Shown: positions 364 through 3,772 of the stretch, one piece after another
Layout: each line of letters opens with the position of its first letter
Numbering within the stretch: the stretch's first letter is position 1
Assembly: GCA_036507075.1 (NCBI GenBank)
Contig: DASXQR010000077.1
Span: forward strand, 1-11,658
DNA length: 11,658 bases
From: Acidobacteriota bacterium
GTDB taxonomy: Bacteria > Acidobacteriota > UBA6911 > JACQSX01
Reading direction: 5' to 3'
Translations under genes and position numbers: made by a program
The notes under the pieces: generated by a model
Told to the model about the DNA's origin: nothing
What the model saw: only the letters and a program-made list of their open reading frames with translations
Databases searched by the model: none

Positions 364-420
364 AAAAAAAGGCGCATTTTTGCGGTTGACTGAAAGAAAC
401 AGCAGTGTACACTGGCCCCC
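364..420 (+). promoter_or_regulatory. sigma70-type promoter with stable-RNA hallmarks
   Basis: -35 TTGACT (386-391), 16-nt spacer, -10 TACACT (408-413), GC-rich discriminator GGCCCCC (414-420), and upstream A/T tracts (364-381). The predicted +1 at G421 coincides with the first base of the terminal stem. Confidence 0.7.
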
Positions 421-667
421 GTCCCAAGAGGTATTGAGAAGCTCGACGGCGGTTGTCGGGCTCGGAAAGCCGGTGGCAGACGTCCCCTGCGGTCGACTGC
501 AAGCCGGTGGAACGAGGCGGCACTTAAGACGTCGAGGAAGCCGGCGACAGTTGCTGGACGCGGGCCTGACCATAAACATTGGGTCCTCTTCGGAGGAGCG
601 AATGGGCCAGGAGAAACGAGGTCCTGCACATAAGGCGCCGGCAGAAAATCTTAGTATCACTTGGGAC
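421..667 (+). ncRNA. Candidate ~247-nt structured non-coding RNA, family not recognised
   Basis: 421-439 pairs with 649-667 (18 of 19 pairs, 3 of them G-U on the + strand). There is a cUUCGg hairpin at 584-597 and further internal helices, a promoter directly upstream and a U-tract directly downstream. No credible ORF covers it. Confidence 0.7.
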
Positions 668-687
668 TTTTTGTTTCCTGCCGAAAA

Positions 688-831
688 AAAAAAACGGAAC
701 CGCCAAGAACGCAAAGGGCGCCAAGACCCTGAATTGAACGCTGGCGTGAAAAGATTTGGAGCGAAAAGGGTCACGGTACTGTTTAATTAATCACTTCGCG
801 CCCTTGGCGTTCTTGGCGGTTCAGTTTTTTT
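688..831. repeat. Inverted pair of 9-bp-periodic arms (AACCGCCAAGAACGC family); possible bidirectional terminator or processing hairpin
   Basis: 688-721 versus 798-831 is a 34-bp inverted repeat with 2 mismatches, ending in A and T tracts. It lies between the convergent ncRNA and beta-subunit gene. Confidence 0.85.
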
Positions 832-837
832 GAAAGT

Positions 838-1877: not shown

Positions 1878-3728
1878 CTACTTGTTTCTCTCCTGATCCA
1901 GAATTGCATCCGTTACCGAGCGGGCGTCCAATGGAAGTCCGTTATAGTGCAGAACGCTGCGGATTTTCGTAATGTCCCCGCTGACGTGAAGCTTGACCAG
2001 GTCGGCCATCTGCCCGTCACGGTTCTGTTCGACGACATAAATCCGGTCGTGATCGCGGACGAATTGCGAAAGATCCTCGTTCAAGGGCAGCGCCCGGATC
2101 CGCAGGTAATCCGCTTCTATATTCTGTTCGTTTCGCAGTTGATCGCGGCTCTCCTCTACTCCCCAGTGGCTGCTTCCGAACGCGATAATCCCAATTTCGG
2201 CATTCCTGCCGTTGCTGCTGATTAGCGGCGCGGGAACTGAGAGCCGGGCAGTTTCAAATTTTCTGGCCAGACGGTCCATCAGGTTCTTGTAGTCTTCCGG
2301 CCTCTCGGTGTACTGCGCATTTTCATTGTGCCCGCTTCCCCGCGTAAAGTAAGCGGCCAACGGGCTCTTTGTTCCCGGCAGCGTGCGCCAGGGAATAGCG
2401 TCGCCGTCCACGTCCCGGTAGCGTTCAAATTTCCCCAGTTTTTCCAATTCTTCAGCCGTCAGAATTTTGCCTCGCTGGATCGGGTTTTCCGGATAGGGGA
2501 AGGGATCAGACATCCAGTTGTTCATTCCCAGATCAAGGTCGGAGCAGACAAAGACCGGTGTCTGAAGTTTTTCGGCCAACTCGAAGGCCTCCAGCGCCAT
2601 TGTGAAACATTCCTCAACCGATGCAGGAAACAGCAGGACGTGGCGCGTGTCGCCGTGGGAAAGGAAAGCCGTCGAAAGCACATCACCCTGTGAAGTGCGC
2701 GTCGGCAGGCCCGTGCTGGGGCCGACTCGCTGGATATCAAAGATGACCGCGGGAATCTCGGCAAAATATCCAAGGCCTGCGAATTCGGCCATCAGCGAAA
2801 TTCCCGGCCCGGAGGTTGATGTCATGGCGCGCGCTCCGGCCCATGAAGCCCCCAGAACCATCCCCAACGCCGCCAGTTCATCCTCCGCTTGAATCACCGC
2901 ATATGTCGCTTTACCTGTTTCTTTATCGTTTCGGAACCGACCGAGATAATCAATCAACGATTCACAGAGCGAGCTGGAAGGCGTTATCGGGTACCAGGTT
3001 GCGACGGTTACTCCACCGAACATCGCTCCCAGCGCGCAAGCTGCGTTGCCGTCGATGATGATTTTGCCCGCGGTCTTGTTCATCCGCTGCAGGTTGAACC
3101 GATCGCGTTTTGCGAGATTCTTCATGGCAAAATCAAAACCGCGGTCCACCGCCTGGATATTCAATTCGGCTGCCTTGGGCTTGGTCTTGAACTGTTTGCG
3201 AACCGCCTTGTGGATTTCCTCGATTTCAACCTGGAGCAACTGGCCTGTGGCGCCGACGTAAACCATGTTGGCCAGCAGCTTTCGAAGCTTTACTTCGGAT
3301 GTAACCTCGGCGGCCAGCTTGGCGAACGGCACTGGATAGAAGACAAGGTCGCTCCGGATGTCGCCCAGCTTCAGTGCCTCTTCGTAAATGACAACCGATC
3401 CCGGCTGAAGTCCCGCGACATCCTCGCGAGCCGTATCCGCATTCATTGCCACCAGGACGTCAATTTCTTTCTTGCGAGCAATGTATCCGTCTTTGTTGGC
3501 GCGGATGGTAAACCAGGTTGGCAGGCCGGCAATATTGGAGGGGAACAGATTTTTCCCGCTCACGGGAATTCCCATCTGGAATATCGAGCGAATCAGCACG
3601 TTGTTGCTGCTCTGGCTGCCGGAGCCATTCACGGTAGCAACCTGAATGCTGAAATCGTTTATGACCGGTTCTTCTCTTTTTTTCTTTAGAGTCTCATCCG
3701 CATACGCGGTCTGAACACTGGAAGCCAA
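1878..3728 (-). CDS. korA: 2-oxoacid:acceptor oxidoreductase alpha subunit (gamma-alpha fusion); start revised to TTG at 3728
   Basis: Motifs NGSGSQS, YPITPSS, QAEDELAA, TSGPGISLM and QRVGPSTGLPT. SD AAAGGAG (3743-3737) lies 8 nt before an in-frame TTG at 3728, whereas the track's GTG at 3755 has no SD. Confidence 0.92.
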   Translation of the reverse strand: MASSVQTAYADETLKKKREEPVINDFSIQVATVNGSGSQSSNNVLIRSIFQMGIPVSGKNLFPSNIAGLPTWFTIRANKDGYIARKKEIDVLVAMNADTAREDVAGLQPGSVVIYEEALKLGDIRSDLVFYPVPFAKLAAEVTSEVKLRKLLANMVYVGATGQLLQVEIEEIHKAVRKQFKTKPKAAELNIQAVDRGFDFAMKNLAKRDRFNLQRMNKTAGKIIIDGNAACALGAMFGGVTVATWYPITPSSSLCESLIDYLGRFRNDKETGKATYAVIQAEDELAALGMVLGASWAGARAMTSTSGPGISLMAEFAGLGYFAEIPAVIFDIQRVGPSTGLPTRTSQGDVLSTAFLSHGDTRHVLLFPASVEECFTMALEAFELAEKLQTPVFVCSDLDLGMNNWMSDPFPYPENPIQRGKILTAEELEKLGKFERYRDVDGDAIPWRTLPGTKSPLAAYFTRGSGHNENAQYTERPEDYKNLMDRLARKFETARLSVPAPLISSNGRNAEIGIIAFGSSHWGVEESRDQLRNEQNIEADYLRIRALPLNEDLSQFVRDHDRIYVVEQNRDGQMADLVKLHVSGDITKIRSVLHYNGLPLDARSVTDAILDQERNK

Positions 3729-3750
3729 TGAGGAAACTCCTTTCGCTCGT

Positions 3751-3772
3751 TTCACTTCACCAATGAAGTGAA
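3751..3772. promoter_or_regulatory. Perfect dyad TTCACTTCA-CCAA-TGAAGTGAA just upstream of the korA SD
   Basis: 9-bp arms at 3751-3759 and 3764-3772. Confidence 0.45.

Follow-up and report, generated by a model that had tools for sequence, protein, structure and literature searches.

Positions 421–667 of the window, by which we mean the whole stretch of 11,658 nt of Acidobacteriota DNA analyzed here, very probably contain a genuine structured RNA gene, as predicted. In the modeled fold, an 18-bp terminal helix (P1) is shown to join the 5′ and 3′ ends of the RNA and to clamp two paralogous hairpin modules of ~100 nt each. On a compromise estimate, we put it slightly above an even chance that this is a stand-alone, lineage-restricted structured RNA of an uncatalogued family that acts as a two-site scaffold. 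The features of the locus are collected in Table 1.

Table 1. Features of the RNA locus, with positions numbered from the first nucleotide of the window
Feature	Positions	Strand	Description
Sigma-70-type promoter candidate	386..413	+	−35 TTGACT (386–391), 16-nt spacer, −10 TACACT (408–413)
Structured RNA proper	421..667	+	247 nt; terminal helix closing two arms at a three-way junction; from folding, single copy, and homologs
P1, 5′ strand	421..439	+	Pairs with 649–667: 8 bp, A-A mismatch, 10 bp; unique in the genome at ≤3 mismatches
Module A	442..536	+	95-nt irregular hairpin, paralog of module B; 72.9 bits with model R2
Module B	540..642	+	103-nt irregular hairpin with the C(UUCG)G hairpin (584–597) as its cap; from folding and pair changes in G003
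P1, 3′ strand	649..667	+	Outer 11 nt, TCACTTGGGAC, identical in G003
U-run, TTTTTGTTT	668..676	+	Directly after P1; likely 3′ end or termination signal
Dispersed inverted-repeat element	686..835	.	Outside the RNA; arms of ~30 nt at ~690–727 and ~794–828, loop of ~66 nt

Direct reading of the sequence reproduced the terminal stem described in the original prediction. A perfect outer segment of 8 bp (421–428/660–667) and an inner segment of 10 bp (430–439/649–658) are separated by A429 opposite A659. Three wobble pairs, G-U or U-G, were found in this stem at 431-657, 434-654, and 436-652, as had been claimed. On the minus strand they would become A-C mismatches, indicating that the plus strand is the functional one. 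The minimum free energy (MFE) of the plus strand was −116.3 kcal/mol, against −88.7 ± 4.8 kcal/mol for shuffled sequences (z = −5.70), and none of 200 shuffles was as good. For the minus strand, the MFE was −87.4 kcal/mol (z = −2.52; 1 of 200 shuffles as good). Both the difference in z and the wobble pairs, which work on the plus strand only, agree with the earlier view that selection acts on a plus-strand RNA.

The predicted fold is a three-way junction in which linkers of 2, 3, and 6 nt connect P1, module A, and module B, and it was unchanged when a longer context (395–700) was folded. Of the 82 pairs that make up the window fold, 7 are G-U, as are 7 of the 37 module pairs in the homolog from genome G003. 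The cUUCGg hairpin noted previously is present at 584–597. A 7-bp helix, 540–546/636–642, had been offered merely as an alternative pairing; it is part of the MFE fold, and two double changes in the homolog back it. Three further helices that had been thought possible (560–567/619–627, 552–557/638–643, and 454–462/539–549) are absent from the fold, which instead forms arms at 442–536 and 540–642. By direct reading, helix 552–557/638–643 is also incompatible with the G003 sequence. The RNA stands out as a single-copy, GC-rich island, with a GC content of 0.62–0.67 across its length and 0.37–0.52 in the flanks.

By sequence comparison, modules A and B are paralogs that arose by tandem duplication, a feature that the original prediction missed. 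Their global alignment scored 56, against 25.6 ± 6.7 for shuffled sequences (z = 4.5; 0 of 1000 as high). Common to both is a basal 7-bp helix. The asymmetric internal loop above it is similar in the two modules, its 5′ strand reading (R)GUUG and its 3′ strand GCAC-WUAAGR-CG, and an A-rich internal-loop motif, GGNGAAACGAGG, is also present in each. When a single-module model (R2) was searched against the source genome, exactly these two modules were recovered, with scores of 115.6 and 72.9 bits. In an alignment of three module copies, 92% of the cells are paired. This alignment combines paralogs with one ortholog, and because the tested structure was derived from the same three sequences, the test is not fully independent; 9 pairs had changed on both sides, a number reached by none of 500 shuffles (3.7 ± 1.5). 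The number of such changes was 0–3 when the pairing partners were slid by 1–3 columns.

The RNA was found in three sources only: the source genome (G000), the 3′ half in G003, and a metagenomic sequence, P0002, available only as the translation of a spurious ORF. A BLAST search over 41 related genomes gave one other match, to G003, which belongs to the same family and a different genus, with 74% identity over the 3′ 140 nt. The G003 contig begins inside the RNA, at RNA position ~118, and the missing 5′ half was not found on the other contigs of this genome, which is 63% complete. The position is conserved, since the homolog too is convergent to an oxidoreductase beta gene, 84% identical to the one in the window. 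Beyond P1, the two loci remain similar for ~20 nt, to a point just behind the U-run. Folded alone, the G003 fragment took the same shape (z = −4.12). Collecting homologs and examining them for covariation had been proposed along with the original prediction; among the 32 pairs of module B, a small sample, 19 were unchanged in G003, 6 had changed on both sides with pairing kept, 5 had changed on one side with pairing kept (all 5 to G-U), and 2 were broken. Because G003 lacks the 5′ half and P0002 is known as amino acids only, cross-species covariation at the nucleotide level is confined to module B, with none for module A or P1.

P0002 was found by a profile-free search of the plus-strand ORF at 275–790 against 1.84 billion protein representatives. 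It is a 139-aa single-member cluster (E = 3.8e-6), and its alignment covers the whole RNA. In the reciprocal search over 137 genomes of the class, P0002 returned only the RNA locus itself (G000:C77:401–691; E = 3e-10). Nucleotides of P0002 were deduced only at positions that the amino acid fixes. By this measure, 8 of 8 determined positions in the 5′ strand of P1 and 11 of 12 in the 3′ strand are unchanged, 19 of 20 in total. The one forced change, G to A at 654, would convert a U-G pair to U-A if 434 stays U, where the codon permits C or T. All 18 pairs of P1 remain possible in this relative.

For the promoter earlier said to place +1 at the stem base, there is a candidate with the arrangement TTGACT-16 nt-TACACT, from which a start at ~420–421 is predicted. 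It matches the consensus at 9 of 12 positions. Over 1200 bases, the scan that detected it gave 2 sites, and shuffled sequences gave 0.6 ± 1.0. In P0002, 3 of 3 positions of the −35 element, 2 of 3 of the −10 element, and 4 of 11 of the spacer are kept, as deduced from amino acids, and the distance from the −35 element to P1 is identical to that in the window. Hexamers kept with a diverged spacer are the pattern expected of a promoter, here read through amino acids rather than DNA.

At the other end of the RNA, the UUUUU reported directly after the stem is confirmed as part of the U-run. This run is partly kept in G003 (ATTTTCTTT), and similarity stops thereafter. A terminator scan left it uncalled because the loop limit of the scan was 3–8 nt. 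The U-run has no local hairpin in front of it, so that a long-range stem would be needed for termination at this point. Termination may depend on the formation of P1 or on the dispersed inverted repeat at ~690–828.

Long open frames run through the RNA region on both strands (275–790 on the plus strand and 244–774 on the minus strand), and gene callers have predicted proteins, P0001 and P0002, from parts of it. We nevertheless regard the chance that either ORF is a protein-coding gene as negligible. Neither ORF matched a Pfam family, and whichever of the six frames is taken, the three codon positions differ from G003 about equally often. Indels of 2 and 1 nt in the alignment with G003 break the reading frame. 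Protein searches with both ORFs gave no real protein homolog: the profile-free search with the plus-strand ORF returned only P0001, P0002, and P0003, a repetitive, unrelated-looking protein that we rejected, and word-index searches with the plus-strand ORF, the minus-strand ORF, and P0002 returned nothing new. P0001 is a public-catalogue protein 100% identical to the 62-aa ORF at 602–790 on the plus strand, which begins inside the RNA. It is almost certainly spurious, because its frame is lost in G003.

The RNA had been described as unrecognised, and none of the 4227 families in Rfam 15, among them raiA, the Acido motifs, riboswitches, and ribozymes, reached its gathering score anywhere in the window. 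A permissive scan of 150–900 (E ≤ 10) gave six rows, none of them over 421–641; two chance-level rows touch the 3′ end. ARAGORN detected no tRNA or tmRNA, and the genome's own RNase P RNA (C15, 248 bits) and SRP RNA (C222, 71.2 bits) lie on other contigs, in keeping with the earlier failure to see signatures of tmRNA, tRNA, or SRP RNA, or complete ones of RNase P RNA. Among the titles and abstracts listed by literature searches, none describes such an RNA, which is weak evidence for its absence from print. The original description as a novel large ncRNA class therefore holds in part: the RNA is free-standing, novel, and unknown to Rfam, but "large class" is an overstatement for an RNA with three sources in all, found in 2 of the 137 class genomes.

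An atypically long 6S-like RNA, which would bind the holoenzyme through open-promoter mimicry, had been named as the other candidate. The likeness to 6S RNA (RF00013) is that of a free-standing, stable, and highly paired RNA with its 5′ and 3′ ends paired, behind a candidate promoter of the housekeeping, sigma-70-like type. 6S RNA is, however, rod-like with a large central bubble, whereas both the MFE and the centroid fold of the present RNA are three-way junctions with linkers of 2–6 nt and no large central bubble. The 6S model found no match in 150–900 even at E ≤ 10, and a canonical 6S RNA lies at another place in the genome (C79:8066–8247; 81.6 bits, against a gathering score of 46.4 bits). 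We accordingly consider the 6S reading highly improbable.

Bacterial Y RNA/YrlA offers another comparison, as it also has a long end-to-end terminal stem with an internal mismatch and extra modules. Unlike Y RNA/YrlA, the present RNA has no tRNA-like module and no Rfam match, and no gene for TROVE/Rsr (Ro60) was found with it. A search for the TROVE domain (PF05731) gave no matches in the 95.7%-complete source genome and was positive in the controls, Deinococcus radiodurans and Bacteroides thetaiotaomicron. The Y RNA reading fails because no TROVE gene was found in a genome of this completeness.

The source genome comprises 6.1 Mb in 233 contigs. The gene that follows the RNA, at 838–1875 on the minus strand, encodes the beta subunit of a 2-oxoacid:ferredoxin oxidoreductase, and the adjoining gene at 1878–3755 encodes the alpha/gamma subunits. 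Because this next gene is convergent, here and in G003, the RNA is neither a leader nor a riboswitch, as originally argued. Between the RNA and the beta-subunit gene sits the inverted-repeat element, preceded by an A-run and followed by a T-run. The family to which it belongs has 133 arm sites on 60 contigs of the genome, with 26 convergent pairs whose spacers range from 3 to 183 nt. Metagenome depth rose to 275 over the repeat arms and was 4.7 over the RNA. The element probably terminates transcription from both sides, that of the RNA gene and that of the convergent oxidoreductase gene. Its arms resemble short tandem ~9-mers. In G003, downstream of the RNA homolog (L003, 170–400), tandem 7-mers (GGTCATT-like) and inverted copies of them occupy the gap that separates the RNA from the oxidoreductase gene; these form a different hairpin-repeat family at a position equivalent to that of the inverted repeat in the window.

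Copies of dispersed palindromic repeats flank the RNA on both sides, and the RNA is absent from the corresponding position in three genomes with the orthologous oxidoreductase gene (G002, G004, and G005). These observations would suit a structured intergenic element of non-genic nature, a mobile-element relic or an insulator of convergent genes that has no RNA function. Like the dispersed hairpin repeats of this genome (REP/MITE-like), the RNA is an inverted repeat around a payload in an intergenic gap. It differs from them in being single copy and in having stem arms that are unique and do not consist of tandem short repeats. Many dispersed copies, as of a MITE, had been named as evidence that would speak against an ncRNA; we looked for them throughout the 6.1 Mb and found one copy only, and each 19-nt arm of P1 occurs once at ≤3 mismatches, so the RNA is not a MITE. 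Compensatory changes, together with G-U pairs that form on the plus strand only, indicate selection on the RNA fold. The promoter hexamers, as read from amino acids, are kept where the spacer has diverged, and conservation stops at the U-run. Given this evidence, we regard a non-genic element as unlikely.

A full-RNA model (R1) searched against the 137 genomes of the class detected G000 and G003, plus a 26.7-bit match in G116, which we rejected because it lies inside a 666-aa ORF. Among the other genomes of the order, R1 was positive in one of five. Run with filters off on the sequence that follows the orthologous oxidoreductase gene in G002, G004, and G005, R1 gave no match; nor did R2 over 150 other genomes of the phylum, or searches of phage and plasmid collections. 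Scans of public collections for two motifs separated by a gap gave 18 genome loci, 13 metagenome loci, and no viral loci. By BLAST and nhmmer, only L003 and L016, which consist of G003 bases, were like the RNA beyond the motif. Judged by these searches, only a small group of soil Acidobacteriota has the RNA.

Among the remaining motif-scan loci, L025 and L037 were rejected: their likeness spans 37 nt at 84–86% identity after a (CAG)n tract, and L037 scored 5.4 bits and L025 gave no model row. Weak model matches in L035 (17.6 bits) and L011 (16.5 bits) are at a distance from the motif and lack most of module B. Contigs from four soil or rhizosphere DNA runs carried near-identical copies of the RNA (records 1, 9, and 14 without a single differing letter), which for that reason add no new sequence variation. 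X4 records 15 and 16 are short pieces of low likeness (38–39 nt, with 6–7 differing letters).

In the explanation that we propose, the plus strand would be transcribed from the sigma-70-type promoter, starting at ~421, and the transcript would end in the U-run, with the downstream dispersed hairpin repeat as a back-up terminator. As a stable trans-acting scaffold or decoy, the RNA would then have two equivalent sites, to be bound by a dimeric protein or by one protein in two copies. Such a role is suggested by the two internal loops, which are conserved, equivalent to each other, and carried on a rigid frame. Taken by itself, this two-site protein-binding mechanism is a tentative proposal.

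Two further readings accept the RNA and differ as to what it does. A compact, tertiary-folded, free-standing RNA could bind a small ligand or be catalytic, in the manner of a tandem aptamer or a ribozyme, with no role as a protein scaffold. Two homologous tandem modules, conserved A-rich internal loops, the UUCG cap, and a very stable fold are all in its favor; tandem modules, A-rich loops, and stable folds are common in aptamers and in ornate RNAs generally. Against this reading, no Rfam riboswitch or ribozyme model matched at E ≤ 10, there is no co-oriented downstream gene to regulate, and the distribution is very narrow, so that we give it only a minor share of our confidence. Glycine-riboswitch-type tandem aptamers are 5′ leaders of the genes that they regulate. 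The glycine riboswitch resembles the present RNA in having two homologous modules side by side, and differs from it in that the RNA has its own candidate promoter and U-run, a convergent next gene, and no model match.

Alternatively, P1 might be an RNase III-type processing stalk, in which case the released hairpin modules or fragments would be functional and the 247-nt molecule only their precursor. An 18-bp terminal duplex with flush ends, nearly invariant in sequence among the homologs, is compatible with such a stalk; that the element is single copy counts against it. We rate this a little less probable still than a ligand-binding or catalytic RNA.

Returning to the two-site scaffold, the most far-reaching form of the proposal is that the RNA is the founding member of an internally duplicated, pseudo-symmetric class. 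Such an RNA could be a compact tertiary unit that binds a dimeric partner or a ligand cooperatively, or a two-site regulatory particle, and would be a counterpart in soil Acidobacteriota of raiA or OLE. We consider this form speculative, and less probable than the two-site mechanism as such. With the orphan RNAs raiA, OLE, ROOL, and GOLLD, the present RNA shares a stand-alone gene, an intricate fold, a GC content above that of the flanks, and no obvious mRNA target. In length it is close to raiA and below OLE, ROOL, and GOLLD. What separates it from these RNAs is the lack of a match to their models, the small number of close relatives, and a trait of its own, the tandem duplication inside one clamp helix.

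The classification that suits the RNA best is as a new family of structured bacterial RNA, restricted to one lineage. In soil, Acidobacteriota belong to the most abundant bacteria, and to our knowledge almost nothing is known of their non-coding RNAs. If the RNA is expressed, it would represent a new structured RNA family whose design is unusually clear, in that a single clamp holds two duplicated modules, and this duplication would provide a direct handle on the partner through the shared internal loops. The narrow distribution limits wider impact for now.

Upstream of the RNA, the contig ends where the window starts, so that the preceding gene is seen only as its last 54 residues (1–167). 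This fragment has no Pfam match, and no counterpart of it was found beside the oxidoreductase genes of G002, G004, and G005. A perfect 6-5-6 palindrome, TGCACA-TGTTC-TGTGCA, lies at 344–360, 26 nt upstream of the −35 element, and is followed by an A-run (364–370). It may serve the RNA gene as an operator or activator site, but could easily have arisen by chance. Further upstream, at 179–235, a unit of ~25 nt occurs in two direct copies, each with the palindrome GGGGAC-T-GTCCCC. Rfam gave only chance-level hairpin matches to 179–235. GGGGACNGTCCCC occurs 70 times in the genome, and the unit is probably a second REP-like family.
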